A program made the position numbers and the translations under genes. A stretch of DNA of 64,000 nt from Candidatus Iainarchaeum sp. (GTDB lineage: Archaea; Iainarchaeota; Iainarchaeia; Iainarchaeales; JAGVWC01): positions 1 to 64,000 of the forward strand of contig JAGVWC010000008.1 in NCBI GenBank assembly GCA_018304465.1, in the 5' to 3' direction. Under the pieces are notes generated by a model. The model saw nothing but the letters and a program-made list of their open reading frames with translations. It was not told where the DNA came from and did no database searches. This document shows positions 9,636 to 64,000 of the stretch, one piece after another (the first letter of the stretch is position 1; every line of letters starts with the position of its first letter).

Positions 9636-9637
9636 CC

Positions 9638-10345: not shown

Positions 10346-10366
10346 AAAGAACCGAGCAAAAAAAAG

Positions 10367-11053: not shown

Positions 11054-11167
11054 GGCACACCATCCAACAGAACTAATCAAACGACGAGCATATAAACCAA
11101 ATCGCCCAAAAACGCGTTTTTTCGCCTCGCCGTGCGTTAGTTTAAAAAAACCAGAAATCCCTATAAT

Positions 11168-11974: not shown

Positions 11975-11983
11975 AAAAAAAAC

Positions 11984-12271: not shown

Positions 12272-12316
12272 CCATCAAAAACCGTTAAAAATACGTTGGC
12301 CAACGATTACACGTAT

Positions 12317-17678: not shown

Positions 17679-19339
17679 TGCCATCCCTTGAAATCAGCAA
17701 AAAAGACCTCGAGCAACTGGTCGGAAAAAAATTCAAAACCAAAGACGAACTGGAAGAAACGCTTCAGTACGCGAAAACCGAACTGGATTCGCTGGAAGGC
17801 GATCTCATCAAATGCTCGCCCTCCGACACGAATCGCCCGGACCTGTATTCCACAGAAGGAATCGCGCGCGAACTCAAAAGCCGCTTGGGAATTTCTCCAG
17901 GCATTCCGAAATACGCCGTGAAAAAAGGAAACGTAAAAGTTACGGTCGAAAAAACCGTTGAAAAAACCCTTCCTTTTTTTGTCGGCGCCGTGGTTCGAAA
18001 CGTCAAAGTCACCGAAGACATGCTGATCCAACTCATTCAATTGCAGGAAAAAGTCACGACGACGTTTGGCCGCCGGCGACGCGAAGCCGCGATCGGAATA
18101 TACGATTTTGACAAAATGAAACCCCCGTTTTTTTTCAGAGGATACAAAGACAACGAAATCGAATTCGTGCCGCTTGAATACAAAGTTCCGATGCGGCCCA
18201 GCGAAATTCTCTTGGAACACCCCAAAGGAAAAGAATTCGCGCACTTACTTGCAGGAATCGAACGCTACCCCATCATCATAGATTCCGCCAACCAAGTGGC
18301 CAGCATGCCCCCGATTATCAATTCTCAAGCCACGGGAAAAGTCACGGAAAAAACCAAAAACCTGTTCGTGGAAGTCACCGGACACAAATTGGAAACCATT
18401 CAAACCGCGCTCAATGTCATGCTCATGGCGTTGGCGGACCGCGGCGGAATCATCGAAAGCATCGAAATCGAATACCCAAAAAGCCCGACGTACAAACAGC
18501 AAAAAATCATTTCTCCGCAATTCGACACCGGTTCCATGACGGTTCCCAAAAAACTCGTCAACGAAATCACGGGCATTTCCCTTGACGAGAAAAAAACCGT
18601 CACGCTGTTCCAACGAAGCGGATTCGACGTAAAAAACACCAAAGACGCTTTCATTGTCATGTACCCCAAATACCGCCAGGATATTTTGCACGCCGTGGAC
18701 ATCATCGAAGACCTGCTGATTTCCATCGGCTACAACAACATCGAACTGTCGCCGCTCAAACTCGCGGTCCTTGGATCCGAAAGCAAAACCGGCCGCGAAC
18801 TCGACGATGTGCGCGACGCGTGCATCGGAATGGGACTCCAGGAAATCCTGACCTTTAACCTGACCAGCATCGAAAAACAAACGCGTCTAATCGGAATCGA
18901 AAAAGACGAATTTGTTCAGATCGCAAACCCCGTGTCCCAAAACTCTGAAATCTTCCGAAAACAATTGTATCCCGAACTGCTTGAATTCCTCGCAAAAAAC
19001 AAACACGCGCAATACCCGCAAAAAATATTCGAAGTGGGAAAAACCGTTTCGATCGACCCAAGCAAAGAAACCGGATGCCGCGAAACCGACAAAATCGCGA
19101 TCGTAATCGCAAGCACGACCACGAATTTCACGGACATCAAATCGCACGCCAACGCGCTTGCCAAATATTCCAATCAAAAAATTTCTTTTGTCGAGACCGA
19201 GCACCCGACGCTTGAAAGCGGAAAAGCCGCCGCTGTCCAAATCGGAAACAGAAAAGGGATCCTCGGAGAATTATCCAAAACGGTTTCCCTCCAATTCGGA
19301 TTGAAAACCCCCGTAACGATTCTTGAAGTGGAATTATGA
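17678..19339 (+). CDS. pheT: phenylalanine--tRNA ligase beta subunit (archaeal type)
   Basis: 553 aa with archaeal PheT organisation (B3/B4 then B5 then catalytic-like domain). Operon with pheS. Confidence 0.85.
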   Translation: MPSLEISKKDLEQLVGKKFKTKDELEETLQYAKTELDSLEGDLIKCSPSDTNRPDLYSTEGIARELKSRLGISPGIPKYAVKKGNVKVTVEKTVEKTLPFFVGAVVRNVKVTEDMLIQLIQLQEKVTTTFGRRRREAAIGIYDFDKMKPPFFFRGYKDNEIEFVPLEYKVPMRPSEILLEHPKGKEFAHLLAGIERYPIIIDSANQVASMPPIINSQATGKVTEKTKNLFVEVTGHKLETIQTALNVMLMALADRGGIIESIEIEYPKSPTYKQQKIISPQFDTGSMTVPKKLVNEITGISLDEKKTVTLFQRSGFDVKNTKDAFIVMYPKYRQDILHAVDIIEDLLISIGYNNIELSPLKLAVLGSESKTGRELDDVRDACIGMGLQEILTFNLTSIEKQTRLIGIEKDEFVQIANPVSQNSEIFRKQLYPELLEFLAKNKHAQYPQKIFEVGKTVSIDPSKETGCRETDKIAIVIASTTTNFTDIKSHANALAKYSNQKISFVETEHPTLESGKAAAVQIGNRKGILGELSKTVSLQFGLKTPVTILEVEL

Positions 19340-28938: not shown

Positions 28939-30057
28939 TTACAATCGCTCCACTTTTTCCTTCGATACCACGAGATTCACGCGGCGCGTCCGACCCTTCA
29001 CATCGCCCATGGTTTCCTCAGCATCCACCAAACCCAATTTGGACAACTTGGACAGCATCGTACGAAACATCCGCTCCGCCAGTGGGCTTGCGACCTCGGT
29101 TTGATAAAACAAAAACAAATCTCCACTATTAACATCCGGATGCCGGGCCACGGTTTTTAACAACGCGGCTTCCGCCAATGACAAATACGCCAAGCGTTTT
29201 TCCAGCGACACCTTGTCGACTTGACCAAACACCGCTTTGCAGTGCTCCGGCAACAACTTCTCCGCGTTTTCCTTTTCGGCCACGCGCCCCGCGGCCAACA
29301 AGGATTCGATTCCCACGCGACAATCCCCGCCGAGTTTTCCGGAATGACCCGCGATAATATCGATCGATTCCGAAACCACGATTCCCGGAAAAAACGCTTT
29401 CTCGGCGCGTTCCGAAAAAATCTGTTTTAACTGCTGCGGAGAATACCCCGCAAACTCGATCCGAACCGGAGAAAGCGAACTTTTCACCCGATCATCAAGG
29501 CTTGCCAACAACTCCGCGTCGTTTGAAACGATAATCACGCCGACCCCGATCCCGTGTTTTTCAGGCAAACGCAACAAATCATACAGCAATTTCGAACCAT
29601 CGTCTCCCGACAACAACTGGTCCGCTTCATCCAGCACGACGATCGGCAAAATTTTTCTTTTCTGCAGAACCGAAACCCATTCCGCCAAGGTTTCATCGCT
29701 TCCGACGCCGCGACGCGGAATAATCGCGCCAAACCGGGTTGCCAATTCCGACAACACGGCATGCCGCGAATTCGCTTCAAAACAATTAATCACGGTTCCT
29801 TTGGCTTTCCCCGAAAACTCCTCGAGTTGCTTGACCACAAACCGAACACTTGCGGTTTTTCCCGTTCCGGGCGGGCCGAACACGAACACGCTTTTGGGTC
29901 GTTTTCCTTCGGACGCGGGTCGCAACGCAAACACCAGTTCATCCAGTTCTTTTTCACGATGCGGCAAATTGTCCGGCAAAAACTCGGGATACAACACCGC
30001 CTCGTCTTTAAACAACTGATTAAGCTTTTCCCGCTCGGCAAACAAGTTCGAAGGCAT
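28939..30057 (-). CDS. cdc6: Orc1/Cdc6 replication initiator
   Basis: MPSNLFAEREKLNQLFKDEAVLYPEFLPDNLPHREKELDEL...FVFGPPGTGKTAS...VVLDEAD... with a winged-helix C-terminus. Start taken at the internal ATG 30057. Confidence 0.9.
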   Translation of the reverse strand: MPSNLFAEREKLNQLFKDEAVLYPEFLPDNLPHREKELDELVFALRPASEGKRPKSVFVFGPPGTGKTASVRFVVKQLEEFSGKAKGTVINCFEANSRHAVLSELATRFGAIIPRRGVGSDETLAEWVSVLQKRKILPIVVLDEADQLLSGDDGSKLLYDLLRLPEKHGIGVGVIIVSNDAELLASLDDRVKSSLSPVRIEFAGYSPQQLKQIFSERAEKAFFPGIVVSESIDIIAGHSGKLGGDCRVGIESLLAAGRVAEKENAEKLLPEHCKAVFGQVDKVSLEKRLAYLSLAEAALLKTVARHPDVNSGDLFLFYQTEVASPLAERMFRTMLSKLSKLGLVDAEETMGDVKGRTRRVNLVVSKEKVERL

Positions 30058-30111
30058 GCAATTAAAACAAGTCAAAAGCAGTTTAAATCCTTTCCTGAAT
30101 ACAAGAATACC

Positions 30112-30921
30112 GTGACGCAAAAAGAAAAAATCGTGCTCATGATTCCCGCCCACAACGAGGAAAAAACCCTCAAAAACCTGCTTCCAGGCCTGATGGCCCT
30201 AAAGAAGGTGGGCGTCTGCCACGAAGTGGTGGTCGTGAACGATGGCTCCACCGACCACACTGGGAAAGTCGCGCTTTCATTCGGAGCGAAAGTTTTAACG
30301 CTTCCAAAGAATTATGGAAAAGCATATGCATTCTACGAAGGAGCCAAAGTTGCGAAACAAATGAAAGCCACCGTTTTCGTGACACTCGATTCCGACCTGG
30401 AACACGTGACAAAAAGGCAATTGGAAGCGCTGATACGCCCGGTTCTGCGCGGAGACGTGAAGATGAGCGTAGGAACAGTCGTTGACCGAAAAACAATCAA
30501 TGGAATACCCGTACATGACTCCACTATTGTAAGCGGCCAACGTGCGTTCCAAATGCAAGCACTTGAACCCTTACTGATTCACAACCCGAAATGGGAAAAA
30601 TTCTTCGGAATCCACAACGGCCAGTTTTGCTATCGAACAGGATTTGGGCTTGAACGCGCATTAAACCAGCTCCTGGTCGGCCATACGGAGTGGATGTACG
30701 GAGGGTCGACGGGCAAAAAAATTGTGGTCCGAACCGAATTTAATGTCCAGCGCGGCGCGTTACAAATAACTTCAAAAAAGCAGATGGACCGTGAAATGGC
30801 AAGCGTCGATTGGGTAAACAACGCCCGAAAAAATACAGCCCGCATCGTTCGCAGCAAACGAAAGGAAGACCCCGCCGAGGCACGAAAAAGGGTCGCGCGA
30901 TTCAAACGGAGAACAAAGTGA
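30112..30921 (+). CDS. family-2 glycosyltransferase (GT2; dolichyl-phosphate sugar transferase-like)
   Basis: KIVLMIPAHNEEKTLKNLL...VVVNDGSTDHT...TLDSDLEH (DxD). GTG 30112 or ATG 30139 start. The upstream part of track ORF 29554.. is antisense of cdc6. Confidence 0.75.
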   Translation: MTQKEKIVLMIPAHNEEKTLKNLLPGLMALKKVGVCHEVVVVNDGSTDHTGKVALSFGAKVLTLPKNYGKAYAFYEGAKVAKQMKATVFVTLDSDLEHVTKRQLEALIRPVLRGDVKMSVGTVVDRKTINGIPVHDSTIVSGQRAFQMQALEPLLIHNPKWEKFFGIHNGQFCYRTGFGLERALNQLLVGHTEWMYGGSTGKKIVVRTEFNVQRGALQITSKKQMDREMASVDWVNNARKNTARIVRSKRKEDPAEARKRVARFKRRTK

Positions 30922-33430: not shown

Positions 33431-33780
33431 CGAAAGGACAATGGTACACGTTTGACGCGCTGTTAGGCTTGTTCATTCTTTCAAGCCTGGTGCTGCTGTC
33501 TCCAGTTCCAACCGCATCGGACCCAACCGAGGATTCCACCCAAAACAAAGTCCACGACTTGCAGGTGATTTGGAGCAAAGAAACCCGGTTTGACCTCGAA
33601 GAAATGAACAGCGATCTCTCCATTGTTTTTCATCACCAAGCGTACGAACTAAAAGTCAACCACACAACCATCCGATCAAATTTTTTCGATCCCGACAAAG
33701 CGCTTTTTTCCTCCGAAATCCCATTCGTTTCGGACACCGACGAAATCCTACGAATCCGAATCCGCGTCAATTACGATTGA
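33427..33780 (+). CDS. pilin-like protein, probable TTG start
   Basis: (M)TKGQ/WYTFDALLGLFILSSLVLL. In frame with track ORF 33358.., which has no convincing ATG. Confidence 0.45.
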   Translation: MTKGQWYTFDALLGLFILSSLVLLSPVPTASDPTEDSTQNKVHDLQVIWSKETRFDLEEMNSDLSIVFHHQAYELKVNHTTIRSNFFDPDKALFSSEIPFVSDTDEILRIRIRVNYD

Positions 33781-34206
33781 ATTCTTTTCCCGCAAAAGCC
33801 GGAAAAAAACAGGCGAATCAAACGAAGCGGAAAACGGTTCACAACGAATCGGAAGCGTTCGGATAAACTCATGTTCAAACCCCGACGAAGATTTGATGGA
33901 AAGAACAAAAAGGTTTTCCCGAACCGAAAGAAACCACGGGTTTTTGGGTCGCGCCGCCACCAAAAACGCGCTTTCGTCCCCCATCAACGCCAATTCCGAT
34001 GCCCGAAAAAGAAAATCATCCGAAAACCGGCGGCCCTCCAATACATCCAAACCGAAAACCGATTTCGAATACAACTGCGAGATCAACGGAGCAAACAAAC
34101 CCAAAACGCCCAAAAAAGCCGCAAAAACAAGCAAAAACTCCAGGGAAACCTGGGCCTTACTTGATATCATCAATTTTCTCGAACAAATCATCCGCTTTCT
34201 GTCCAA
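33748..34206 (-). CDS. archaeal type IV pilin-like protein
   Basis: ...MISSKAQ/VSLEFLLVFAAFLGVLGLF is the classic prepilin motif (AQ-VSLEFLL). The real start may be the internal Met at 34170. Confidence 0.55.
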   Translation of the reverse strand: MDRKRMICSRKLMISSKAQVSLEFLLVFAAFLGVLGLFAPLISQLYSKSVFGLDVLEGRRFSDDFLFRASELALMGDESAFLVAARPKNPWFLSVRENLFVLSIKSSSGFEHEFIRTLPIRCEPFSASFDSPVFFRLLREKNSIVIDADSDS

Positions 34207-45788: not shown

Positions 45789-46922
45789 ATGTACAACATG
45801 CAACACAAAACAAAAATACTTTTGTTGTTGGCAACCCTGGTGTTTGCCAGCGTTTTTGCCGCGACTCCGAGCCCCGGCCACAACCTAAACGAACTATCCC
45901 CCACCAACTGTCCCGCCGGACAATTCCTCATCAACATCGGCGCCGGAATCGGCACCGCCGGATACGCCTGCCAAACCCCCGCCGCCAGCTACTGGCAAGC
46001 CAACGGACCCAGCATTTACTACAACACCGGATACATCGGCATCGGAATCAACGCGCCCCAATCCAAACTCGACATCCAAAACGGAGGAATACTCGTCCGA
46101 GGATACAACCTACCCGTTGGAGGAGTCCCGATGCTGGCCATGGGATACAATACCGCACTAGACCGCGCACAAATTATGTCCGTCAACTCAAACGTCATCG
46201 GAAAACAACTTGACATTTCCGGATACCCGCTTATTTTTCGATCCTCCCACACCGGCAACGAACAAGTCCGAATCAATACCGACGGAAAAGTCGGCATTGG
46301 CGTCGACGCACCCACCGAAAAACTGGATGTCGCCGGCAAAATCAAAGGAACCGAACTCTGCATCGGAAATGTCTGCAAAGACGCATGGCCGTCGGAAAGC
46401 AGCGGAACCATCACTCAAGTCACCGTCGGATCCGGAATGACCGGCGGCGGAAGCAGCGGAAGCGTTAGCGTTCGATTAAGCGACTGTCCCGCAGGACAAG
46501 TACTCAAAAGCTGCGGAAACAACTGCTGGCAATGCCAAGCGGACAACGTCGGCAACGTAACGATCGATTCTTCCTGGCTGGTCAACAATGCGCCGCAAGG
46601 AACCCTCTGCGGAAGCTACAAAATCCAGGCGTACTACTACTGGACCAATTTGCCCGAATGCGGATACAAATCATTCAACAGCGTTTTTGACCGCCAATTA
46701 TTGACTTCGTGCGCGGGACACAACATCGTTTCCGGAAACAGCGTGTGGTTTAGCGAGATACAACAATGCGGACTTTTCGGATGCACACCCTACTATTGCA
46801 CCATGAATTTTACCGCTGACTGTCCTGCCGGATATGCCCCCAAAATGATCGCGTACGAACACGTCGATCCGCCGTTTGTCGACCCTATTTTCAGCGCGTT
46901 CTATTCCTGCATCAAACAATAA
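45789..46922 (+). CDS. secreted Cys-rich protein with repeated CPAGQ motifs and VGIG...KLDV tail-fibre-like motifs
   Basis: Signal peptide. CPAGQFL, CPAGQVL and [23 protein letters not shown] and [20 protein letters not shown]. Confidence 0.5.
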
Positions 46923-46986
46923 ATCCAAACCCACGTGCATACAAATAAAATGGGTTTCCTCAACCCTTAGATACCCGAGGAAAAAA

Positions 46987-49881
46987 ATGTCCGAAAAAGA
47001 AAACACGATCGGAGAACTGCCCTGGATCGAAAAATACCGACCCCACACCTTAACCGACGTGATCGGACAAGAAGAAATCACCAAACGACTCAGCGCCTAC
47101 GCCAAAGCCAAAAACATGCCCCACTTATTGTTTTCGGGACCCGCCGGCGTTGGAAAAACCAGTTCTTCTGTCGCGCTTGCCAAAGAACTATTCGGACCCA
47201 GCTACGAACGAAACTTTTTAGAATTAAACGCATCGGATTCAAGAGGAATCGACGTGGTTCGCGGAACCATCAAAGACTTCGCGCGAACCCTTGCCTTTGA
47301 CTCGAATTTCAAAATCATTTTCCTGGACGAAAGCGACGCGCTCACCGCGGACGCCCAACAAGCGCTTCGCCGAACCATGGAAAAATTCACCAAAACCTGC
47401 CGCTTCATTTTGAGCTGCGTCACGCCGGATACCAAAATTACGCTCCCAAACGAAACCGAAATCACCATTGGGGAATTCGTCGAAAAATTCGAACAGAAAA
47501 AACAATTTGAAATCTTGAATATTGACGAAGCCCAGAGAATCGAAAAAAACGATTCAGTCATTTGCACCATCGAACAAAATCCCCAAACAACAGGAAAACG
47601 AGTCTTTGAACTCGAAACCAACACTGGCCGGACACTCAAACTAACCGAGGATCACTTGCTTCTTACCGAATCGGGGTGGAAGCAAGCAGGACAAATCAGC
47701 ATGGGCGAAAAAATCGTGGTTTTTCCAAGCCTTGAAGGAACTGCCATTCCAGATGATTCTCGCCATTTAATCGATAAAACGGCGTTCGGAGAGTTCATCA
47801 AAAAAACGGAACTTGAAAACAACTACAAGCCACTGACTGAAGCAAAAACATTTAGAGAACTCTGTACTCAAGACAAGCACCGCATCATTGAATCCATAAA
47901 AAAACTAGCGTGCATAGTCCGCAATGGTGCCGGCCTAACCCCGACCGAAAATAGGCTCTTTCAGCATATTTTAAAATGCCCGAACAGTAGCCGCTTAGAA
48001 CTGCAAACCAGGATGCAATTGTCAAGAATCCGAACAGGCGAGCTTCTGCACGCCATTGAAAAGAAAGGATTTCTCGTGCGGAGCCGCAAAGGCAAAATGG
48101 CGCATTTCGCCGCTAACGGAATGCCCTTTGCGCTTCGGAATTACCGCGATATACAAAACCAAATCCAGCAAGAATTCAAAATAAGAATCTCCTATGCGGG
48201 AATAAAAAAAATAACCAAAAACAAAGAACATCACCCCCAAGGTCTGCATGAAAAAACAATCCGGGAATTAGAAAAAAAAGAAATGTTTTCAATTACGCGC
48301 GATTCCCCTAAAGCCGCAGCAATCATACGTCTGCTGGGGTTCATCTTCGGAGACGGCCACATTACAAAGTCGCGCCAGCGCATCATTTTCACCGGAAACA
48401 TCGAAACGTTGAAAGAAGTTAAAAAAGACCTCGAGTTACTTGGTTTTGATTCAAGCCAAATCCAACACAAACTCATCAACAATACGATCGGGAATAGAAA
48501 ATTCACTGGAACCACCACATGCTTTTATGTCGATTCACGTGCACTGGAAAAGACCCTAGAATTCTTGGGCGCCCCCAGGGGAGACAAAATAATAACCGCG
48601 TATGAATTGCCAAAAACCGTTCAAACAGGCAATAGACTCCAAAAACGCGAATTCCTGCGCGCATTGTTTGGGTGCGAAGGATACTCTCCGAAGATTGACC
48701 AAAAAAACTTCGAAGCAATTCCAATGCGAATGCACAAAGCAACCGAACTACACGACAACATGCTGCGATTCTTTACCGATTTGCAAAACTTGTTAAAAGA
48801 ATTCGATGTCGATTCAACAGTTTCCGTTGAACAACTGGATTATACGAGAAAAGACGGAAAAAAACCAGAGTGCTTCTGTCTCAGCCCGCTGCCAAACAAC
48901 CAAAATCTCTTTCGCTTCTTCTCCCGAATAGGGTATGCGTATGAAACCACAAAAATGAACAAAGCACGATTAGCCTCCGAATATCTTCGACATAAACAAC
49001 ATGTGCTCAACCAGCAAAAGCAAAAAGCACAACAAATCATTACAGCGCTTGGAAGCGGTAAGACCACCGGAGAATTGGCACGCGAATTTGGTTGCACCCC
49101 TGACTTTGTAGCCAGCCAAGCAAAAAAAAAGCCGGTTCATCTTCCCCGAAAAGGTTTCCCATCCTTCATAGACTGGAAAGAAAAAAACCAGTATGAAAAC
49201 GGGCTTGTATTCAACGAAGTGATACGACTGCAACAAGTGTGCGCACCAAAAGTAATCGATCTCACCTGTCTCTCAAACCACAATTTTATAGCTAATGGAA
49301 TCATATCCCATAATTGCAATTATTCTTCCCGCATTATCGAACCCATTCAAAGCAGATGCGTCGTGTTCAGGTTCAGACCCTTAACGCCAAAAGACATCGA
49401 CAACGCCCTTTACCCCATCGCCAAAAAAGAAGGCATCGAACTCAACGAAAAAACATTGAAAGCCATCAATTACGTTTCCCAAGGCGATTTACGCAAAGCC
49501 ATCAACGTTTTGCAAGCCGCCGGCGCCAGCGGAAAAAAACTCACAGAAGAAAACGTGTACGCCGTCAGTTCTCGTGCCAGACCCGAAGAACTCCAGCAAA
49601 TGATCCGGCTCGCACTAGACGCCAAATTCATGGACGCCCGCGAAAAACTCGACCAACTGCTCTTCGAACACGGTATGAGCGGAGAAGACGTGATCACGCA
49701 AATGTACCGCGAAATCATGGACATGGAAGAAAAAGAAATTCCGTCACACACCAAAATCGAATTAGTGGACATCATCGGCGAATACAACTTCCGGCTCGTT
49801 GAAGGCGCCAACGAACGATTACAATTAGAAGCATTGCTTGCGCAATTCGGAAAATTCAAACACGCGCACGAAAAAGATTAA
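46987..49881 (+). CDS. rfcS: replication factor C small subunit, interrupted by one intein (exteins 46987..47415 and 49315..49881)
   Basis: [30 protein letters not shown]...GPAGVGKTS...[11 protein letters not shown]...TCRFILS|C[intein]HN|[15 protein letters not shown]. Confidence 0.9.
47416..49314 (+). mobile_element. intein (633 aa) with a LAGLIDADG homing-endonuclease domain inside rfcS
   Basis: Starts with Cys (CVTPDTKI...) and ends ...GIISHN followed by +1 Cys. Two LAGLIDADG-type motifs are present ([11 protein letters not shown] and [10 protein letters not shown]). In frame with both exteins. Confidence 0.8.
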
Positions 49882-49948
49882 CACGTTGGCCGATTTCAAA
49901 AAGCCGAAACACCCAAAAAAAGAACGAAACGAACCAGCAGGAATACGA

Positions 49949-50932
49949 ATGCCAAAGCCACGAAAAAATCGTTCCATCCCACGCTTAAGCTCGGCGGAGC
50001 ATGCCGAACGAAACAAACAGGTTCTGAACATCCATGAAAACGTTCGAGCGATCGCCGCAATTTTTGTCACCAAACATGGAGGCCTTAAAGCGATCGAACA
50101 ACAGTATGGACTGACGTTTGACGACTTGATTCAGATCGGCAACCTAGGCGCAATGGAAGCGGCATCCACCTGGGACCCCGGCAAGGGAAGTTCCTTTCTG
50201 ACTTTCGCCAGCCGCCGTATAGAAGGTGCAATTCAGGATCATATTCGCAAATATGGAACCCTCGTTCACGTCTCGCGGACTTTCCATCGCCAGCTAAACA
50301 GCGGTAAACTCCAAAAACTCGAACAGGAAATCGCAGAAACAACTCCCGGAACTTCCGTGCACAAAAGACTCGTCCGTGAACGGGCCGGACTTCTAGGGCA
50401 ACGCCAAACCCAGACCGTCAAGTCGATTTCTTTTCAAAACGAACAAGCCCCAAGACCCGTCGATCGCAATGAACTCCGAAGCCTCAAACAGTACTTTTTG
50501 CGCCGCCTCAAACAGTTTCCCCGACACGAACAACTCTGTTTTATTCTCAGTTACCTGCATCCCACGCCCTCCGAAATACAGAGGTTCGTCCATGAAAAAC
50601 CCTTATTCCTATCCGCCAGGAACGCCTTCACCAGTCGACCCACCGACCGGGTATTCAATCTCGACCTGAACCTACTATCACCCACGATGCCCCCTAAAAC
50701 CATTGGCAGAATACTGGGTCTGTCCGAAATTAGAGTCTACCAGATCCGAATAAAAATTGGAAGCGCAATTTTCGCCGATCCGCGTACACTCAAGGCATTC
50801 GGATTAGAAGACACAGAGGGAAAATACCCCGCTATCGCCCAGGTACTCGCACACAAAAAAAAATTTACCGACTCCGATTACAATCGAATCGGAAAAATGC
50901 TGGAAGAACTGTTCCAGCCGCTTGAAAACTAG
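49949..50932 (+). CDS. bacterial-type sigma-70 family factor (sigma-28/FliA-like, regions 2, 3 and 4)
   Basis: FDDLIQIGNLGAMEAASTWDPGKGSSFLTFASRRIEGAIQDHIRKYGTLVHVSRTFHRQLNSGKLQKLEQEIAETTPG aligns position by position with the E. coli FliA region 2-3 sequence (LDDLLQAGGIGLLNAVERYD...FTTYAVQRIRGAMLDELR...VPRSVRRN...LEQELGR). Region 4-like segment: FPRHEQLCFILSYL...TIGRILGLSEIRVYQIRIKIGSAI. Confidence 0.7.
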   Translation: MPKPRKNRSIPRLSSAEHAERNKQVLNIHENVRAIAAIFVTKHGGLKAIEQQYGLTFDDLIQIGNLGAMEAASTWDPGKGSSFLTFASRRIEGAIQDHIRKYGTLVHVSRTFHRQLNSGKLQKLEQEIAETTPGTSVHKRLVRERAGLLGQRQTQTVKSISFQNEQAPRPVDRNELRSLKQYFLRRLKQFPRHEQLCFILSYLHPTPSEIQRFVHEKPLFLSARNAFTSRPTDRVFNLDLNLLSPTMPPKTIGRILGLSEIRVYQIRIKIGSAIFADPRTLKAFGLEDTEGKYPAIAQVLAHKKKFTDSDYNRIGKMLEELFQPLEN

Positions 50933-56875: not shown

Positions 56876-57157
56876 ATGCGACCCAAACGACCCCTTCGGT
56901 TTGGCGAAAAATTCAACGAATCAATCCACATAGACCGCCGCACACAAAATCAACCCGTAATCCAACGGGACGAATTAAACTGGTTTAAAGAACCGCCAAC
57001 CCACAGCATGGAGCTAAAAGCCCAAGCACGAACAGTCCGCAGGGAAACCGAAAACGGAAAATCAATATTTTACCTAAAAGATTTGCGAGAACACAAACCA
57101 AAAACACTCAAACAAGCACTGCCGTTGATTCGCAAAAAGCGCGCCGAACAAAACTGA
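56876..57157 (+). CDS. hypothetical small basic protein
   Basis: 93-aa ORF in the 380-nt spacer between thrS and the pilus ATPase. No support beyond the ORF itself. Confidence 0.2.
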   Translation: MRPKRPLRFGEKFNESIHIDRRTQNQPVIQRDELNWFKEPPTHSMELKAQARTVRRETENGKSIFYLKDLREHKPKTLKQALPLIRKKRAEQN

Positions 57158-57212
57158 TGTTTTCACTGCGTAATACTTATATATTCCAAATCCCTTGTCT
57201 ATAGCGACTTAG

Positions 57213-58958
57213 ATGCCCGACTATCTCAAGGAAGCCATTGAGAAAGCCAAAAAAGCCAAGGACGCTTCCAAAACCCAACAAGCGCCTGCGACAAACATCT
57301 ACTCTAACCAGCCGAACGAAAAACAAATCGCGAAAACGATCGACATCGTTCAAAAACCCGCGCCGACACCCACTCCTTCTTCAACGACCGCAACAGACCC
57401 GGCCAAACTACTGGATTCCACCATCGAAGAACTGGACATCGAGCAATTCGAACAAGAACGCCAAATGGAACCCGACGAAAACCGCGAAGTCATTGAAAGC
57501 AACGGAAGCGTTCAAATCGTTCGCCGCAAAAACCACGACTTGCTCGAATACCGCGTTCCCGTTCCAAAACCCACCTTGGGCGAAAAAACGATTATCAACA
57601 TTATCAAAGAAGCCGCCACCCAACTCATTTCGATTTCACCGTACCGCATCCGCGATCCCCAGCAACGCCGCAACGTATACTACCAGCGCATCATGGAAAT
57701 ACTCAAAAACAGCCCCGAACTCAAAATTTCGCCCACGCGATTCCAGTTTTACGCCGAATCAGTCGTTCGCGAAATGGTCGGATACGGCGTCCTCGACCCA
57801 TTGTTATCCGACGACAACATCGAAGAAATCATGGTCATCGGACCCAAAAAACCCGTCTACGTGTTCCACCGAAAACACGACATGATGACTACCAACATCG
57901 AATTTTTTTCCGACAAAGAAATCCAAAACGTCGTCAACAAAATCGCCCGAGACGTCGGACGCCGCGTCGACTTTTCCACCCCGTTGCTTGACGCCCGCTT
58001 ACCCGACGGAAGCCGCGTCAACGCGACGATTCCGCCCGCAAGCGTTGACGCCAGTTCTTTAACGATCCGAAAATTCCGAAAAGACCCGTACACCATTCTG
58101 GACCTCATCAACCTTAACACCATGGACAGCAAAACCGCCGCGTTTTTGTGGCTGTGCGTCGAAGGACTCTCCACCAAACCCGCCAACGTGCTCATTGCCG
58201 GCGGAACCGGCAGCGGAAAAACCACGACCCTCAACGTTTTCACGTCGCTGGTGCCCGAACGCGAACGCGTCATCACGATCGAAGACACCGCCGAACTCAA
58301 TTTGCCGCTTCAACACTGGATCCGGCTCGAAGGACGACCCCCCGGAATCGAAGGCGGCGGAGAACTCGCGTTGGATATTTTAACCAAAAACAGCTTGCGC
58401 ATGCGTCCGGACCGCATCATTGTCGGAGAAGTCCGGCACGCGGAAGCCGCCACCATGTTTACCGCCATGAACACGGGACACGACGGCGTCATGGGAACCA
58501 TTCACGCGAACAGCGCCGAAGAAACCCTGGTCCGCATCCTAAGCCCCCCCATGAGCGTTCCTCAAACCATGCTAGCAGGACTTGATTTTATCGTGGTTCA
58601 AAACCGGTTACACGACCGCCGAAAAGGAACGATCCGGCGCATCACTGAAATCGCGGAAGTTCACGGCGTGCTCGAAGGAAAGCCCGTGACCCAACCCCTG
58701 TTCGAATGGAACGCGACCGAAGACAAGCTTCAATACAGCGCAAGCCAAACCGAATCCACACCGGACCGAAAAAACAAACTCAAAACCAAGGAAATCAAAT
58801 ACTTCAAAAAATTATCCGACTTGACCGGACGATCAATCGCCGACATCGAACATGAAATCGACCGCCGGGCGGATTTCCTCGAAAAACTCACCAAACAAAA
58901 CATCAGCGGCATCAAAGCCGTGCGAGACCTCACCAACCAGTTGTTATCCAATTCGTGA
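57213..58958 (+). CDS. type IV pilus/archaellum-type assembly ATPase (FlaI/TadA/EpdL-like)
   Basis: Walker A AGGTGSGKTT, Asp-box and His-box (TGHDGVMGTIHANS), and an N-terminal PAS-like region. 581 aa. Confidence 0.85.
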   Translation: MPDYLKEAIEKAKKAKDASKTQQAPATNIYSNQPNEKQIAKTIDIVQKPAPTPTPSSTTATDPAKLLDSTIEELDIEQFEQERQMEPDENREVIESNGSVQIVRRKNHDLLEYRVPVPKPTLGEKTIINIIKEAATQLISISPYRIRDPQQRRNVYYQRIMEILKNSPELKISPTRFQFYAESVVREMVGYGVLDPLLSDDNIEEIMVIGPKKPVYVFHRKHDMMTTNIEFFSDKEIQNVVNKIARDVGRRVDFSTPLLDARLPDGSRVNATIPPASVDASSLTIRKFRKDPYTILDLINLNTMDSKTAAFLWLCVEGLSTKPANVLIAGGTGSGKTTTLNVFTSLVPERERVITIEDTAELNLPLQHWIRLEGRPPGIEGGGELALDILTKNSLRMRPDRIIVGEVRHAEAATMFTAMNTGHDGVMGTIHANSAEETLVRILSPPMSVPQTMLAGLDFIVVQNRLHDRRKGTIRRITEIAEVHGVLEGKPVTQPLFEWNATEDKLQYSASQTESTPDRKNKLKTKEIKYFKKLSDLTGRSIADIEHEIDRRADFLEKLTKQNISGIKAVRDLTNQLLSNS

Positions 58959-60052
58959 AAAAAATGTCCGAAATCAAAGAATTCACAGACGTCGACCAGG
59001 ACACCGTCGACAACATCGTCCAAAAAATGCGCAAAAAAGAAGTCGCGGGCACAGTCATCGCCACCGAAGAAGACATGCAGATGCGCGGCGAAATGCTCGG
59101 AAAATCCAAACCCGCCAAAATAGAAATTGGAAACGTCGGAGACTTTCTGGATTTTAATTCCCAAATCATTCATGGCCTCATCGAATTCTACCTCAAACTT
59201 CAAGATCCGTTAAAACCCATCGCCAAATTCATCGCCCAACTCTCCGCGACCCAAACCCTCAATTACTATTTGCACAGCGCAAACCTCAAATACACCTTAA
59301 ACCAATACCTCGCCATCACCACCGCCATCACGGTACTGGCGACACTTTGGGGAATCGTCATGGGACTGCTCATCGGATTCATTCTCCGCGTTCCCTTTGT
59401 ATTCTACCCGCTGCTCGCGGTCTTTGGCGCGGTATTTGCCGGCACCATGGGACTCTTCATTACCTTGCTGGTTCCCAAAAGCATCGCCGAAACCCGCGGC
59501 GCCCAAGTCAGCATCGAAATGCCGTTTGCCTTGCGACACATGGCAACCGAACTACGCAGCGGCGCGGGACTCTACCGCACCATCCAACTCATTGCCGTCG
59601 CGGACTACGGCGTATTATCCGAAGAATTCGCGCGCACCGTCAATGAAATCGAAGAAGGAACCGACGCCAAAGACGCCCTCAAAAACATGGCCAACCGCGT
59701 TCAATCGATCGCCATGCGAAACGCCCTCAATCACATCGTTCGCGCCATGAAAACCGGCGGAAACCTCTCCGAAGTCATGAGCGACATCGCCGACGACGTG
59801 TCCGTGGAAATCCGAAACCGCATCAGCGAATTCTCGGAAAAAATGAATTTTTTCGGAGTCCTCTTCATCTTCGCCGGAATCATTATACCCGTCATGATCG
59901 CCATTCTGGGCGGAATATCCAACGCACCGCTTCCCATGGCATTCCCCATCCCGCTGTCCATTCCGCTTCTCATCATCTTTTACTTAGTCGTCATGCCCGT
60001 GATACTCGGAATATTGATCCTGTACTTACGCGCCATCCAACCCAAAGCGTGA
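58955..60052 (+). CDS. pilus platform protein, single T2SS-F domain (TadB/FlaJ/EpdJ-like)
   Basis: 365 aa with a cytoplasmic helical domain plus 3-4 TM helices. GTG start overlapping the ATPase stop. Confidence 0.65.
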   Translation: MKKMSEIKEFTDVDQDTVDNIVQKMRKKEVAGTVIATEEDMQMRGEMLGKSKPAKIEIGNVGDFLDFNSQIIHGLIEFYLKLQDPLKPIAKFIAQLSATQTLNYYLHSANLKYTLNQYLAITTAITVLATLWGIVMGLLIGFILRVPFVFYPLLAVFGAVFAGTMGLFITLLVPKSIAETRGAQVSIEMPFALRHMATELRSGAGLYRTIQLIAVADYGVLSEEFARTVNEIEEGTDAKDALKNMANRVQSIAMRNALNHIVRAMKTGGNLSEVMSDIADDVSVEIRNRISEFSEKMNFFGVLFIFAGIIIPVMIAILGGISNAPLPMAFPIPLSIPLLIIFYLVVMPVILGILILYLRAIQPKA

Positions 60053-60056
60053 AAAC

Positions 60057-61001
60057 ATGAAAGAAACAAAACCATTCAACGAACGAATCCAGCAAATGCT
60101 CGTGAAATACGAAAAAGTCATGCAAAAAAACGGAGTCTCCACCACCGCCACCAACTGGATCGCCTTGGCGTTTGGCAGCGCCATTATTCTCTCCGTGCTC
60201 GGATTCCTCGTTTTTTCCCTGGTCGGACTCGATCACCCGCTTTTGATCACTGTCGTTGTTTTTTTCGTGGTCATTGACCTCGTGCTCGGATACCCGCTTT
60301 CACTGGACATGCAGCGCATCAACCGGATCGAAGAAGCGTTTCCAAATGTCCTAAAACAACTCGGAGACACCCTCAAAGCCGGCGGAACCTACGAATTCGC
60401 CTTGCGCGAAGTATCCGACAGCGACTACGGCCCTCTCACCAAAGAACTCAAACTCGTTTTGCGTCGACTCGAAGAAGGACAAAACCTCGACAAAAGCCTT
60501 CAACTCATGCAAGAAGAAATCGATTCCCGACTCGTCAAACGAACATTAACCATTATTATCGACGCGCTCAAATCCGGCGGCGGACTCGCCGAAATACTCG
60601 ACGAAATCGCGGACGACATGCGCGACCTGCACCGCATTCAACTCGAACGCCGCACCAAAACCACCATGCAAGTCCTCTTCCTGGTCACCGCCGGCGCCAT
60701 TGTCGGACCCGCCATCATGGGATTCACCACCACCGTACTCGAATTCCTGATCACCACCGCCGTCAAAAGCCAAGCCATCCAACCCGACGTCATCGAACAA
60801 TCCCTTCAATCCAAACAAATCATCATTTTTCTTTTAACCAGCTACATCATCATTGAAGCCATCGCCGCCAGTATTCTACTCGGATTAATGCGCGACGGAC
60901 AAGCCAAGAAAAGCATTATATACATCCCAGTCTTACTATTCATGGGTTTGTTTTTGTTTTACGGAGCCCGCATCATCACCAAAGTGATACTGCACTTCTA
61001 A
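60057..61001 (+). CDS. pilus platform protein, single T2SS-F domain (TadC/FlaJ/EpdK-like)
   Basis: 314 aa, homologous in architecture to the preceding gene (…KSGGGLAEILDEIADDMRDL against ...KTGGNLSEVMSDIADDVSVE). Confidence 0.65.
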   Translation: MKETKPFNERIQQMLVKYEKVMQKNGVSTTATNWIALAFGSAIILSVLGFLVFSLVGLDHPLLITVVVFFVVIDLVLGYPLSLDMQRINRIEEAFPNVLKQLGDTLKAGGTYEFALREVSDSDYGPLTKELKLVLRRLEEGQNLDKSLQLMQEEIDSRLVKRTLTIIIDALKSGGGLAEILDEIADDMRDLHRIQLERRTKTTMQVLFLVTAGAIVGPAIMGFTTTVLEFLITTAVKSQAIQPDVIEQSLQSKQIIIFLLTSYIIIEAIAASILLGLMRDGQAKKSIIYIPVLLFMGLFLFYGARIITKVILHF

Positions 61002-61016
61002 AAAAAAAGGAAAAAA

Positions 61017-61175
61017 ATGAAACTACTCCAAGAAAAACGCGCCCAGAATTCCATGGAAACCCTCATCATGGTCGGCGGCGCGATCCTGGTTGCCGTTACG
61101 GTCGGACTCATTGTCAAGCAAGCCGCGAACCAACTCGGAAACGCCGGAAACCAACAAATCGGCAATACGCCGTAA
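61017..61175 (+). CDS. mini type IV pilin (52 aa), below ORF-track cutoff
   Basis: MKLLQEKRAQ/NSMETLIMVGGAILVAVTVGLIVKQAANQLGNAGNQQIGNTP, my translation, with a class III signal peptide. Confidence 0.6.
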   Translation: MKLLQEKRAQNSMETLIMVGGAILVAVTVGLIVKQAANQLGNAGNQQIGNTP

Positions 61176-61275
61176 ACACGCCTGTTTATCCAACCGCTTT
61201 TTTCCAAGAAAACTATTAAAAAGCCAGAAGGCTTACTGAATACAACAAAACATACATCCATGGAGGAAAAAACCT

Positions 61276-61626
61276 ATGTTTGCAAACAAAGGACAAGGCT
61301 CGCTAGAATACCTCCTTATTTTAGGAGGAGCCATTCTAGTCGCCGTCATCATCATCGCAGCCATCACCCTGTTGCCAAACAACAGCCCGGTGGAGCTCAA
61401 CGCATTGGCCGCAAACTGCCAAACATCACTCAACCAGAATTTGTGCCAAAGCACAGCAACCCCCGCATCATTGGTCGTTGCCGCAGTTGATGCCACACAC
61501 CCCGGATGCCCGCAAACAGGAACCGTAAACTCGGTAGCTGGCGCAGGAACCGCATGCTGCTGGACCGGATCAACCGCGGACCAGGGAACATGTAGACTCA
61601 ACCCCAACACAGCACAGAGACCATAA
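61276..61626 (+). CDS. type IV pilin (class III signal peptide)
   Basis: MFANKGQ/GSLEYLLILGGAILVAVIIIAAITLL then a Cys-containing C-terminal domain. Confidence 0.7.
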   Translation: MFANKGQGSLEYLLILGGAILVAVIIIAAITLLPNNSPVELNALAANCQTSLNQNLCQSTATPASLVVAAVDATHPGCPQTGTVNSVAGAGTACCWTGSTADQGTCRLNPNTAQRP

Positions 61627-61640
61627 ATCGGTGAAGTTGC

Positions 61641-61811
61641 ATGAACAAACGCGCACAGGTTTCAATGGAATATTTGACGATCGTGCTGTTTGGCTTGATG
61701 CTGGCGGTGGCCGCCGGAGTTCTTCTGGCGTCCGTCAGCACCGTTGCCAACACCGCGAAAGCCAAAGTGCTCACCTATCGCGAACAAGCCATCTCCAACC
61801 TGCTGCAATAA
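61641..61811 (+). CDS. mini type IV pilin (56 aa), below ORF-track cutoff
   Basis: MNKRAQ/VSMEYLTIVLFGLMLAVAAGVLLASVSTVANTAKAKVLTYREQAISNLLQ, my translation. The overlapping track ORF 61631..61825 is in another frame and is rejected. Confidence 0.6.
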   Translation: MNKRAQVSMEYLTIVLFGLMLAVAAGVLLASVSTVANTAKAKVLTYREQAISNLLQ

Positions 61812-61888
61812 AACCATTTTTTTAACCGGGTTCGAAAACGAACCCGACCCTTTTTTATTTTTCAAAGCCATTCATAATACGACTTCCC

Positions 61889-62983
61889 ATGACCGCTTTT
61901 GAAACCGCCGCTTTTCTTGTGACCTTTGCCGGACTCTTGATCGCCACGTACACCGACCTCAAACAACGCATCGTCGAAGACTACATTTCATACGGCATGA
62001 TCGGACTGGGACTCCTGATCCATTTGTGGGAAAGCCTTTCGCTTCACGATTGGTCTCCGTTTTACTACTCGCTTGGAATCGCCGCGGCCACGTTTTGCGG
62101 CGGATTCATTTTATGGCGACTGGGATTTTGGGCTGGCGGCGATGTCAAACTATTCACGGGAATCGCCGCGTTACTGCCGTTTCGACCCTTGTTTTTGACC
62201 GATCAAATCGGGCTTGCCGCAAACCCCGCGTTTCTGCCCATTTTTCCGCTCACGGTCCTCCTCTTTAGTTTGTTTGCCATGTTTCCCGTTGGAATCGCGC
62301 TTGCGGCCTACCGATTACACCAAAAACCAGCGGTGAAAAACAAAATCATCAAAGACCTCAAAGCCCAGATTCCCACCAACGCGTATTTTGCAGTGGCGGC
62401 CGCCGGACTCGTCGAAGCAAGCCAGGTGTATTTGAACAACTCGCTTTTTGCGATTGCAGGAATCCTCGTTTTTTTCGTGCTCCCCAAAAAAATCCGCCCT
62501 GTTGCCGCCGCCCTCGCGTTTGCAGCAGGAATCATCGCCAACACTCCCGAAGCGTTGGTGTCGGCCGCCACCACGTTTGTGGTGCTTGAAGCGCTGTCAC
62601 TCGTCTTTAAATTGTCTTTTTCCAAAGAAATTTTTCGAACCGAAAAACAGATCTCCAATCTGGCGGAGGGCGACATTGTCGCGACCACGATATACGAAAA
62701 AAACAACGAAATATTTGTGGAAAACAATCCCGACATCCAAACTATTATAAAGAACCTCAAAACACAAACTACTTCGAACGACCGGCGCATCATCTGCGCC
62801 AGTTACAATGCCGGAGGATTGGAAAACAACCAGATCCAAGAGCTTCAAATACTGGCAAAACAACAAAAAATCCCGTCCACGATCCTCGTCAAGGAATCCG
62901 CACCATTTGTTCCGGCCATTCTTGCGGGGTTCGTGCTGGCCAGCGTATTTGGAGAACTTCTGTGGAAAATCGTGATGCCATGA
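61889..62983 (+). CDS. prepilin peptidase (A24 family; FlaK/PibD/EppA-like) with an extra C-terminal soluble segment
   Basis: The first catalytic Asp lies in TDLKQRIVEDY and the second in the GGDVKLF motif. Multiple TM helices. About 120 aa of soluble C-terminal region before a final TM. Confidence 0.8.
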   Translation: MTAFETAAFLVTFAGLLIATYTDLKQRIVEDYISYGMIGLGLLIHLWESLSLHDWSPFYYSLGIAAATFCGGFILWRLGFWAGGDVKLFTGIAALLPFRPLFLTDQIGLAANPAFLPIFPLTVLLFSLFAMFPVGIALAAYRLHQKPAVKNKIIKDLKAQIPTNAYFAVAAAGLVEASQVYLNNSLFAIAGILVFFVLPKKIRPVAAALAFAAGIIANTPEALVSAATTFVVLEALSLVFKLSFSKEIFRTEKQISNLAEGDIVATTIYEKNNEIFVENNPDIQTIIKNLKTQTTSNDRRIICASYNAGGLENNQIQELQILAKQQKIPSTILVKESAPFVPAILAGFVLASVFGELLWKIVMP

Positions 62984-63435
62984 ACCAAAACGGACAACTC
63001 TCCATCGAATTCATGCTCATTCTCATCGTGTCCATCGTGTACATCAACACCGTTATTTTTCCGATGGTGGATTTCGGACAAACCACGTTAAACGAAATTT
63101 ATGGTCTGGGGCAAACCCGCATGGCCACCCAAAAAATCGTCAACACCATCAACTCGGTCGTGCTCCAAAGCTCCACTTCAAAGCAAATCATTTCCATGAC
63201 GCTTCCAAAAAACAGCCGGATTGAATGCGTCACCGCGCCCCAAAACGGAATCAAATTCACCTATACGCTTTCCGATATCGCCCAATCCTGCAGTGTCAGC
63301 ACGACGTGCACGCGAACCATTCCCGTTGAACTTCCACCCGGAGTCAGCCTCAACTGCGCGGGACTCGACTTTACCGGACCACGCCAAAACACGGTCACCA
63401 TCCGGTTCCAAGCCGACACGGTCCAGTTTTCGTGA
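62980..63435 (+). CDS. type IV pilin-like protein
   Basis: MNQNGQ/LSIEFMLILIVSIVYI. Confidence 0.6.
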   Translation: MNQNGQLSIEFMLILIVSIVYINTVIFPMVDFGQTTLNEIYGLGQTRMATQKIVNTINSVVLQSSTSKQIISMTLPKNSRIECVTAPQNGIKFTYTLSDIAQSCSVSTTCTRTIPVELPPGVSLNCAGLDFTGPRQNTVTIRFQADTVQFS

Positions 63436-63446
63436 AGGGAAAAGCC

Positions 63447-63806
63447 ATGAAAAACCACGGACAAACCAGCATCGAAATGCTGGTGATCGCCATGTTCGTA
63501 TTGGGATTAACCGCGTATTTTACGACGCTCACGTACTCCGACAACAACGACACCCACGCGTTGTTGGTCGCCAAAACCCGCTTGCTTGAAAAAATCAACG
63601 GCCAAGACAAAACCTTCGTGCTGGTCAATATCCAACTCGACCGAAGCGCACCCGGACAACTGATCATCAACGCGAGCACGGTTCCCGCCACCCTCAAAAA
63701 AACCGGTGCCGGAAACCCCGGAGACACCACCATTCCGGTGAACGACATCGAAACCGAAATCAAAATCCGAACCGGCGACACCATCGTCCAAATCAACCTT
63801 AACTGA
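63447..63806 (+). CDS. type IV pilin-like protein
   Basis: MKNHGQ/TSIEMLVIAMFVLGLTAYF. Confidence 0.6.
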   Translation: MKNHGQTSIEMLVIAMFVLGLTAYFTTLTYSDNNDTHALLVAKTRLLEKINGQDKTFVLVNIQLDRSAPGQLIINASTVPATLKKTGAGNPGDTTIPVNDIETEIKIRTGDTIVQINLN

Positions 63807-63862: not shown

Positions 63863-64000
63863 ATGCCCTGGCCCGAACCCCTCGTGATCACGTGCATTGG
63901 ATTTTCGGTTCTGGGAATTCTGTGCATTGCATTTCTGTTCCAACACCCGGATCCGCCCGTCACCGCCATCGAAAACCTATTCGAATTGGAAGCCAACACG
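63863..64000 (+). CDS. membrane protein, N-terminal fragment (continues beyond window)
   Basis: MPWPEPLVITCIGFSVLGILCIAFLF... is an open frame to the window end. Confidence 0.25.
   Translation, partial: MPWPEPLVITCIGFSVLGILCIAFLFQHPDPPVTAIENLFELEANT

Follow-up and report, generated by a model that had tools for sequence, protein, structure and literature searches.

The 64-kb stretch of contig JAGVWC010000008.1 analyzed here (hereafter the window) comes from Candidatus Iainarchaeum, a tiny and uncultured archaeon (Diapherotrites, DPANN), and near its end nine genes follow one another at 57213-63806 on the plus strand. We conclude with high, though not complete, confidence that this operon encodes an intact and vertically inherited archaeal type IV pilus of the Epd-like class, or System 1. 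An open reading frame (ORF) check placed all nine ORFs at the coordinates given below, tightly packed and in the order ATPase, platform protein 1, platform protein 2, pilins A, B, and C, peptidase, and pilin-like proteins D and E. An earlier reading of this DNA, which we call the sequence-only reading, had proposed an Epd/Tad-like pilus locus with an ATPase, two platform proteins of a single T2SSF domain each, three tandem pilins of 52, 116, and 56 amino acids (aa), a peptidase, and two more pilins; domain searches and a motif scan agree with that proposal.

Database searches with each of the nine genes returned metagenome-assembled genomes of Candidatus Diapherotrites or Iainarchaeum as nearest relatives. 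The nine-gene order is identical in seven independently assembled relatives (L001, L003, L004, L006, L007, L009, and L011), whose ATPases are 54-76% identical to the window copy and one of which, L006, is the complete AR10 chromosome. With five more metagenome loci, the cassette is present in at least 12 divergent Ca. Iainarchaeum/Diapherotrites genomes, a conservation of gene order that the sequence-only reading had left to be checked. As L009 has unrelated genes on both sides of the cassette, its extent can be set at exactly nine genes. The locus had also been described as complete, which holds for this core cassette but not for the neighborhood, as the latter runs on past 63806 through OB-fold, TctA, and JAB genes and four class-III-like genes. 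Ratios of nonsynonymous to synonymous substitution rates (dN/dS), computed against the closest relative L001, are 0.11-0.41 in eight of the nine genes and 0.71 in the gene for pilin-like protein E, and both ORFs of less than 60 aa are under purifying selection. The GenBank annotation, made with the Prokaryotic Genome Annotation Pipeline (PGAP), already holds the pilin and peptidase products that we checked, under locus tags J4215_01275 to J4215_01300.

The first gene (57213-58958, +) encodes a CpaF/TadA-like pilus assembly ATPase of 581 aa (T2SSE, E = 1.3e-48) with an N-terminal low-complexity extension of about 110 aa. Its best solved relative in a PDB search was bacterial CpaF, the motor of the Tad pilus, at 260 bits, followed by GspE of A. 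fulgidus at 221 and FlaI at 200. The Walker A, Walker B, and His box motifs line up with those of CpaF (GGTGSGKT, RPDRIIVGEVR, and TGHDG..HAN), identity to CpaF is 46% over 311 core columns, and the best plasmid-borne matches are rhizobial (Sinorhizobium) CpaF proteins at 42-43% identity. A neighbor-joining tree of these 311 core columns unites the cassette ATPases with two bacterial CpaF proteins in a clade of 100% bootstrap support; FlaI, A. fulgidus GspE, and two more archaeal ATPases, one of them paired with a fused platform, fall outside it. This tree, which holds few taxa and does not include Methanococcus EpdL, favors membership of the ATPase in the Epd-like/Tad lineage without proving it. 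Caulobacter CpaF drives extension as well as retraction, and by analogy the lone ATPase of the cassette could likewise power both movements.

Some ATPases among the relatives are unusually long. The orthologs in L006 (AR10; 9635-12790) and L007 (9599-12913) reach 1051-1104 aa, and BLAST aligns each in two separate segments; because other long homologs (P0031 and P0101) have Intein_splicing matches, these two ATPases likely contain an intein insertion. No intein is present in the 581-aa window copy. A further locus, L010 (contig k141_959647, 8001-10625), encodes an 874-aa ATPase with two T2SSE matches that branches next to the cassette ATPases; it was considered as part of the same system and rejected, as no platform, pilin, or peptidase genes lie within 8 kb of it.

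The platform is divided between two genes. Platform protein 1 (58955-60052, +) is 365 aa long from a GTG codon that overlaps the ATPase stop, or 362 aa from the ATG at 58964, and platform protein 2 (60057-61001, +) has 314 aa; the profile searches suggested by the sequence-only reading find one T2SSF domain in each (E = 7.9e-20 and 4.9e-20, respectively). Against NCBIfam models, platform protein 1 aligns with positions 15-248 of the 484 of UpsF, and platform protein 2 with UpsF 264-447 and with positions 171-463 of the 465 of ArlJ. A fused Methanosarcinales platform of 710 aa aligns with platform protein 1 over its residues 3-334 and with platform protein 2 over residues 449-568. From these alignments, the two proteins are colinear with the N- and C-terminal halves of fused FlaJ/UpsF-type platforms. 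Comparison by hhalign with Sinorhizobium TadB and TadC gave 51.6 and 45.0 for platform protein 1 and 49.7 and 35.9 for platform protein 2, scores that are similar for both profiles, and PDB sequence searches with both platform proteins returned nothing meaningful. Every relative examined encodes platform protein 2 as an ORF of its own, in another frame. The two platform ORFs are neighbors, separated by 4 nucleotides (nt) and read in different frames, as a frameshifted or decaying FlaJ gene might look. That idea, and the doubt whether the tiny pilin ORFs are genes, are refuted by comparison: at least 12 divergent genomes share the position of the split, both platform halves are under purifying selection (dN/dS 0.16-0.21), and the tiny ORFs have dN/dS values of 0.11 and 0.29 and a family of 250 clusters.

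The peptidase gene (61889-62983, +; 'prepilin peptidase' in GenBank) encodes a 364-aa protein with matches to Peptidase_A24 (1.6e-13) and Arc_PepC (1.1e-13), predicted to be an EppA-type prepilin (class III signal) peptidase. An A24 core is followed by more hydrophobic segments, the soluble Arc_PepC region (PF06819, about residues 230-332), and a last membrane helix; the number of membrane segments is a crude estimate. The core aligns with FlaK (3S0X), with D23 and the GGD aspartate D85 at the two catalytic Asp positions of FlaK. The second-Asp motif reads A-G-G-D85, the first Gly of GxGD being replaced by Ala. The sequence-only reading had seen here an EppA-like peptidase carrying an unusual soluble insert of about 120 aa; the first half of that description stands, and the 'insert' turns out to be the curated Pfam family Arc_PepC. 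The NCBIfam EppA model matches the peptidase in two stretches, and as this region aligns with the C-terminal part of the model (EppA 203-328 of 334 with residues 225-351), it is a feature of EppA-type peptidases and no oddity.

The sequence-only reading had further asked for class III signal-peptide prediction on the small ORFs, and we judged these signals by the Pfam family PF04021, by an explicit motif count with the whole window as background, and by conservation. All five small ORFs have a short polar leader, a [GA]-Q-x-S-x-E motif, and a subsequent hydrophobic stretch, with Q+1, S+3, and E+5 in each, and the motif is kept in positional orthologs across cassettes. In six frames of the window, motif, hydrophobic stretch, and nearby start codon occur together in only six ORFs; five of these fall inside one 2.8-kb stretch of the cassette, and the cluster is therefore not a product of chance. 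A further motif occurrence, RGAQVSIEM at 59501 inside platform protein 1, was considered and dismissed as a signal peptide, since it lacks a hydrophobic stretch behind it.

Three of the five pilins lie upstream of the peptidase gene. Pilin A (61017-61175, +; 52 aa, predicted cleavage KRA/QNSMETL, mature 43 aa) is 69% identical to its L001 ortholog (dN/dS 0.29) and has positional orthologs of 47-59 aa in all cassettes. Pilin B (61276-61626, +; 116 aa, predicted cleavage NKG/QGSLEYLL) has a Cys-rich C-terminal part, a dN/dS of 0.34, and the PGAP name 'class III signal peptide-containing protein'; six Cys residues in its extracellular part are conserved in L001, which suggests a small disulfide-bonded head domain. 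Pilin C (61641-61811, +; 56 aa, predicted cleavage KRA/QVSMEYL, mature 51 aa), recognized by motif and conservation, is the best-conserved gene of the cassette, at 84% identity to L001 and a dN/dS of 0.11, and on that ground we would guess it to be the candidate major subunit. Its family, pil56, comprises 250 clusters of 55-62 aa in which Q+1 and Y+6 are invariant (Y+6 in the 60 members checked), and pilins B and C both combine E+5 with Y+6, the E5-Y6 pair of Flp pilins. AlphaFold2 modeled the pil56 family as one continuous helix over residues 3-55 with no globular domain (predicted local distance difference test, pLDDT, 94.2). Searched against the PDB, the pil56 profile found its best match in PilA (8u1k), the 45-aa Tad pilin of Caulobacter, aligned in register but with a nonsignificant E of 0.22; a Foldseek search of the single-helix model against the PDB gave no matches, as expected for a lone helix.

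Contrary to the expectation of the sequence-only reading that automated annotation would miss the tiny pilins, GenBank has both with correct starts (pilin A as MBS3061196.1, J4215_01275; pilin C as J4215_01285, 56 aa). Other pipelines call them as well and mis-start only the 56-aa gene: the callers behind the JGI, ENA, and Logan sets begin at an internal ATG at 61665, giving 48 aa and losing the signal peptide. A Shine-Dalgarno-like GGTGA stands 6 nt before the ATG at 61641 and supports the longer form.

The remaining two are candidate minor pilins, recognized by motif and hydrophobic stretch. Pilin-like protein D (62980-63435, +; NQNG/QLSIEF), named 'Class III signal...' in UniRef, starts in an ATGA overlap with the peptidase stop and has positional orthologs of 149-200 aa in all cassettes (dN/dS 0.41). 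Pilin-like protein E (63447-63806, +; KNHG/QTSIEM) evolves fast (dN/dS 0.71), has positional orthologs of 109-142 aa, and found no match in a Pfam search. Their starts were corrected to the most likely ATG codons at 62980 (151 aa) and 63447 (119 aa), in agreement with GenBank.

Far from the operon, beside an M50 peptidase gene, an orphan class III signal protein of about 140-152 aa is encoded at 33748-34206 (-). The motif scan reads its signal as SSKA/QVSLEFLLVF, it scores 22.2 bits with Class_IIIsignal, just under the cut-off, and it is a possible further substrate of the peptidase.

Placement among archaeal and bacterial filaments

Short pilins and a pair of single-domain platform genes, the outcome of a fission, are common to Epd-like and Tad systems; Tad has been proposed to derive from an archaeal system of this kind, and bacterial CpaF and the Epd-like systems are placed as sisters (Denise et al. 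2019, PMC6668835). A recent preprint describes System 1 as having two platform genes and an Epd pilin without globular domain, and as occurring in methanogens, Thermococcales, and DPANN (Sivabalasarma and Albers 2026, bioRxiv 10.64898/2026.04.22.720090). The long EppA peptidase variant has been tied to clade 1 (Makarova 2016, PMC4858521), and EppA substrates have a short leader, Gln+1, and Glu+5, recognized as DUF361/PF04021 (Nair et al., PMC3875500). DPANN pilus islands with TadB/TadC and unrecognizable pilins have also been illustrated (Makarova et al. 2019, PMC6393860).

The closest point of comparison is the Epd pilus of Methanococcus maripaludis. Both systems pair one assembly ATPase with platform proteins encoded by two genes, and both have an EppA-type peptidase of their own, in which an A24 core is joined by extra membrane segments and Arc_PepC. 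In both, the pilins begin with a short leader and have Gln+1 and Glu+5 (PF04021); the major-type pilin is very short and has no globular domain, and several larger minor pilins accompany it. They differ in arrangement: the M. maripaludis genes are spread over at least four loci, with the platform genes reported before the ATPase, whereas here a single cassette runs ATPase, platform, platform, pilins, peptidase, pilins. The small pilins are also shorter here (mature 43 and 51 aa vs 62), two of the pilins have the Tyr+6 that none of the Methanococcus pilins has, and neither a FlaH/MinD-type ATPase nor the extra Epd accessory genes lie near the cassette.

The bacterial Tad/Flp (type IVc) pilus is a second point of comparison. 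The ATPase is nearest to CpaF, the order is likewise ATPase, platform, platform, with two single-T2SSF proteins, the one-helix pilins of 43-51 aa carry E5-Y6, the peptidase has no methyltransferase domain, and a separate retraction ATPase is missing from both. On the other hand, the cassette and the 64-kb window hold no secretin (RcpA), TadZ, TadD/G, or CpaB-E. None of the pilins matches Flp_Fap in Pfam at E ≤ 1 and neither D nor E matches TadE, and the leader of the cassette pilins ends in [GA] ahead of Q. The peptidase, too, differs from the rhizobial TadV of 170 aa, having the archaeal Arc_PepC and far more membrane segments. As matches to TadZ, secretin, Flp_Fap, and TadE are all lacking, the locus as judged by its families falls outside the bacterial Tad family and resembles it only in its working. 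As a secondary reading, among living systems this compact operon with E5-Y6, Flp-sized pilins may stand nearer than the dispersed Epd genes of Methanococcus to the system that passed into Bacteria and became Tad. The sequence-only reading had offered the locus as a good model of the archaeal ancestor of Tad pili, an idea that Denise et al. (2019, PMC6668835) had already published as a hypothesis.

Several observations weigh against the Epd-like assignment or limit it. The label rests on proxies, namely CpaF affinity, peptidase architecture, and the PF04021 motif. At the Pfam level, against the Class_IIIsignal cut-off of 23.7 bits, only pilin B passes (29.0 bits), and three pilins, including pilin A at 17.9 bits, fall below threshold. 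The peptidase reaches 60.8 with the EppA equivalog model against a cut-off of 450, just as the ATPase misses the FlaI cut-off, and is better described as having the architecture of EppA than as a proven EppA ortholog. For pilin-like proteins D and E the pilin fold is putative; an AlphaFold2 model of D from a two-sequence alignment was unusable (pLDDT 47.6). Nor is a second ATPase of FlaH/KaiC or MinD/TadZ type found among the roughly 60 ORFs of the window; as the second ATPase of System 1 is often encoded elsewhere (PMC4858521), this absence is weak evidence. Finally, split platforms have been reported in subsystems 4A (including some DPANN) and 4B (bioRxiv 10.64898/2026.04.22.720090) and in many clade 2 loci, so that a split platform alone is not diagnostic of System 1.

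That last point opens the way to a different class, under which the locus would be another archaeal type IV filament subsystem with two platform genes (4A, 4B, or clade 2). This view draws some further strength from the FlaI model being the best NCBIfam score of the ATPase and from the absence of EpdL in our comparison. We nonetheless hold it to be improbable: the ATPase groups with bacterial CpaF and not with FlaI, A. fulgidus GspE, or the other sampled archaeal ATPases, the peptidase is of the variant that Makarova et al. tied to clade 1, the pilins carry the EppA-substrate Q+1/E+5 signal of PF04021, and Pfam finds no PilY-like adhesin in the cassette.

Still more remote is an archaellum for motility, or a bindosome or secretion-type system, in place of a pilus. 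The ATPase, platform, and A24 peptidase folds are homologous to those of the archaellum core (FlaI/ArlI, FlaJ/ArlJ, and FlaK/PibD), the peptidase core aligning with FlaK as noted above; ArlJ models match platform protein 2, and relatives are labeled 'flagellar protein FlaI' in some sources. Yet the NCBIfam FlaI model gives the ATPase only 302 bits against a cut-off of 550, and BasE 170 against 1000. The platform is split here and fused in the archaellum, the peptidase is of the long EppA type, and scans of the cassette and window find no archaellins (Arch_flagellin only at E = 0.073), no stator or accessory FlaF/G/H/X/CDE genes, and no class III substrate-binding proteins. Taken as the Epd-like pilus that we favor, the locus is ordinary in that the class, the archaeal origin of Tad, and DPANN members have all been published and its genes are already in GenBank. 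Its value lies in being a clean, minimal, and strongly conserved nine-gene example, with boundaries set by comparison and small pilins that resemble Flp more than the Methanococcus pilins do.

Expression signals and proposed assembly

A TATA-like box, TTATATAT, read from the sequence at 57177-57184 (+) about 30 nt before the ATPase start codon, is a candidate promoter for the operon. Directly after pilin C, at 61827-61862 (+), lies a terminator-like hairpin of 8 bp, 6 of them G-C, followed by a T6-A-T5 run (-13.9 kcal/mol, z = -3.56), and L001 has a different hairpin with a U-run at the same position after its 56-aa pilin gene. A sigma-70 promoter scan was disregarded for this archaeal DNA, and only its terminator list was used. 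From these signals, we infer a single operon that is attenuated once the three small pilin genes have been transcribed, an arrangement that would keep pilins high and the peptidase and minor pilins lower. Just upstream of the candidate promoter, a basic 93-aa ORF (56876-57157, +) is under purifying selection (dN/dS 0.14) and matches no family; it was rejected as a cassette member, being present only in the closest relative.

By analogy with the Tad and Epd systems, assembly might proceed as follows. The five pilin precursors would enter the membrane, where the EppA-type aspartic peptidase would cleave each of them behind its short basic leader, ahead of Gln+1. A CpaF-like hexameric ATPase would dock onto a platform in which two T2SSF proteins of half size stand in for the N- and C-terminal halves of a fused FlaJ, and together they would pull the helical, Flp-sized pilins from the membrane into a thin helical filament. 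Pilin C is the proposed major subunit of this filament, and the larger pilin-like proteins D and E probably serve in its priming or capping.

Downstream OB-fold, TctA, and JAB genes and the use of the filament

Starting 56 nt after the last pilin gene, a gene for a membrane-anchored OB-fold protein of 115 aa has its 5' end in the window (63863-64000, +, frame 2). The continuation can be read from L012, which is 99.96% identical to the window and extends past its end (L012:10884-14585 corresponds to window positions 63863-67564). There, the OB-fold gene overlaps the start of a gene for a 393-aa TctA-family permease (TctA E = 4.6e-37, about 11-12 hydrophobic segments), which is followed by a JAB gene and then four class-III-like pilin genes of 149, 162, 110, and 188 aa. 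The OB-fold protein has an N-terminal membrane helix. Its fold scores below the threshold in this genome (BOF 22.4 vs 25.8), and the AR10 and L011 orthologs pass it; 29 of the 33 members of its family match PF01336, and the family profile matches STN1, RPA32/14, YgiW, and YhaM, by which the family is assigned to the nucleic-acid-binding OB folds. No TctB or TctC genes were found in the neighborhood of the OB-fold/TctA pair.

The OB-fold, TctA, and JAB genes follow the cassette in most relatives, co-directionally, and in nine divergent genomes JAB is followed by a class III protein of about 140 aa that is itself conserved; with the cassette ahead of them, the three genes are thus embedded between pilin genes. 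The adjacency of cassette and OB-fold/TctA pair is kept even though the TctA proteins are only 31-50% identical. In AR10 (L006), a gene for an additional DUF2101 membrane protein, at 17665-18234, separates the OB-fold gene from the last pilin gene.

A similar pair is known from M. maripaludis JJ, in which natural transformation needs MMJJ_13020 (OB-fold, one membrane helix), MMJJ_13030 (a TctA-like permease), and Epd pili (PMC10133366). The same screen also picked up Epd genes including eppA and epdJ/K/L, the essentiality of the pilus itself coming from earlier work, and the TctA-like protein was put forward as the DNA transporter (PMC10133366). In the Iainarchaeum locus, the two-gene architecture of OB-fold protein with membrane helix plus TctA stands immediately downstream of the cassette and, with a JAB gene, is enclosed by pilin genes on both sides, whereas the M. 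maripaludis pair is encoded at a great distance from the pilus loci. Likening the pair by its architecture to MMJJ_13020/13030, we find that the neighborhood leans toward a role of the pilus in DNA capture and import, a lean that we would put somewhat below even.

The homologous Methanococcus Epd pilus has two known uses, surface attachment and DNA uptake, and the chances are about even that the Iainarchaeum filament is a pilus for adhesion only, to surfaces or host cells, with the adjoining OB-fold, TctA, and JAB genes reflecting inherited local synteny without functional coupling. Attachment is a documented role of both Epd and Tad pili. The gene for threonyl-tRNA synthetase, surely unrelated to pili, is also syntenic upstream of the cassette in most of the relatives, and conserved order is therefore weak evidence for a link to DNA uptake. 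The distribution of the pair further weakens the DNA-uptake reading: in a metagenome survey anchored on TctA, the OB-fold gene is directly upstream of TctA in 34 of 69 loci, whereas the pilus cassette is present in just 5 of the 26 loci with at least 8 kb upstream, all of them from the nearest TctA relatives, and L009 and L007 carry the cassette without a neighboring TctA. Against a use in adhesion alone stand the co-directional placement of the three genes so close to the last pilin gene, with the class III gene of about 140 aa beyond them in nine divergent genomes, the retention of this adjacency at such low TctA identity, and the genetic requirement, in M. maripaludis transformation, for a pair of the same architecture along with Epd pili.

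In its fullest form, DNA uptake would make the Iainarchaeia cluster of cassette, OB-fold, TctA, JAB, and second pilin set a complete uptake machine, in which DNA would be caught by the pilus, bound by the membrane-anchored, extracellular OB-fold protein as its receptor, and passed through TctA as the channel. We consider this doubtful but worth stating. If true, it would support TctA, independently and from genomes, as the archaeal ComEC counterpart that has long been sought, and it would hint that DPANN archaea, with their reduced genomes, take in DNA as a source of nucleotides or genes. To our knowledge, archaea have no ComEC, and the passage of DNA across the archaeal membrane is an open question. 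The OB-fold/TctA pair of Methanococcus is the only genetic lead on archaeal DNA transport, and a linkage to pili in a distant lineage would strengthen that lead through guilt by association and would suggest that DPANN archaea scavenge DNA. A literature search found no paper tying TctA to DPANN pili, and the conserved linkage described here may thus serve as a modest new lead on archaeal DNA uptake.

Other features of the window

Scans for tRNA genes and Rfam families over the 64-kb window returned nothing. A 364-aa ORF at 49838-50932 (+) matches Sigma-70 region 2 (3.1e-13, 49.8 bits vs a cut-off of 24), a bacterial-type sigma domain that is unexpected in archaea. The gene for the replication factor C small subunit (46876-49881, +; 1001 aa in total) is split by an intein that includes a LAGLIDADG endonuclease domain. 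Across the window, each of the 32 two-kb bins shows a negative GC skew and AT skew is mostly positive, independent of gene orientation, and there is no change of skew sign at the Cdc6/Orc1 gene (28939-30153, -). This skewed composition gives rise to many long spurious ORFs that overlap real genes in the window.

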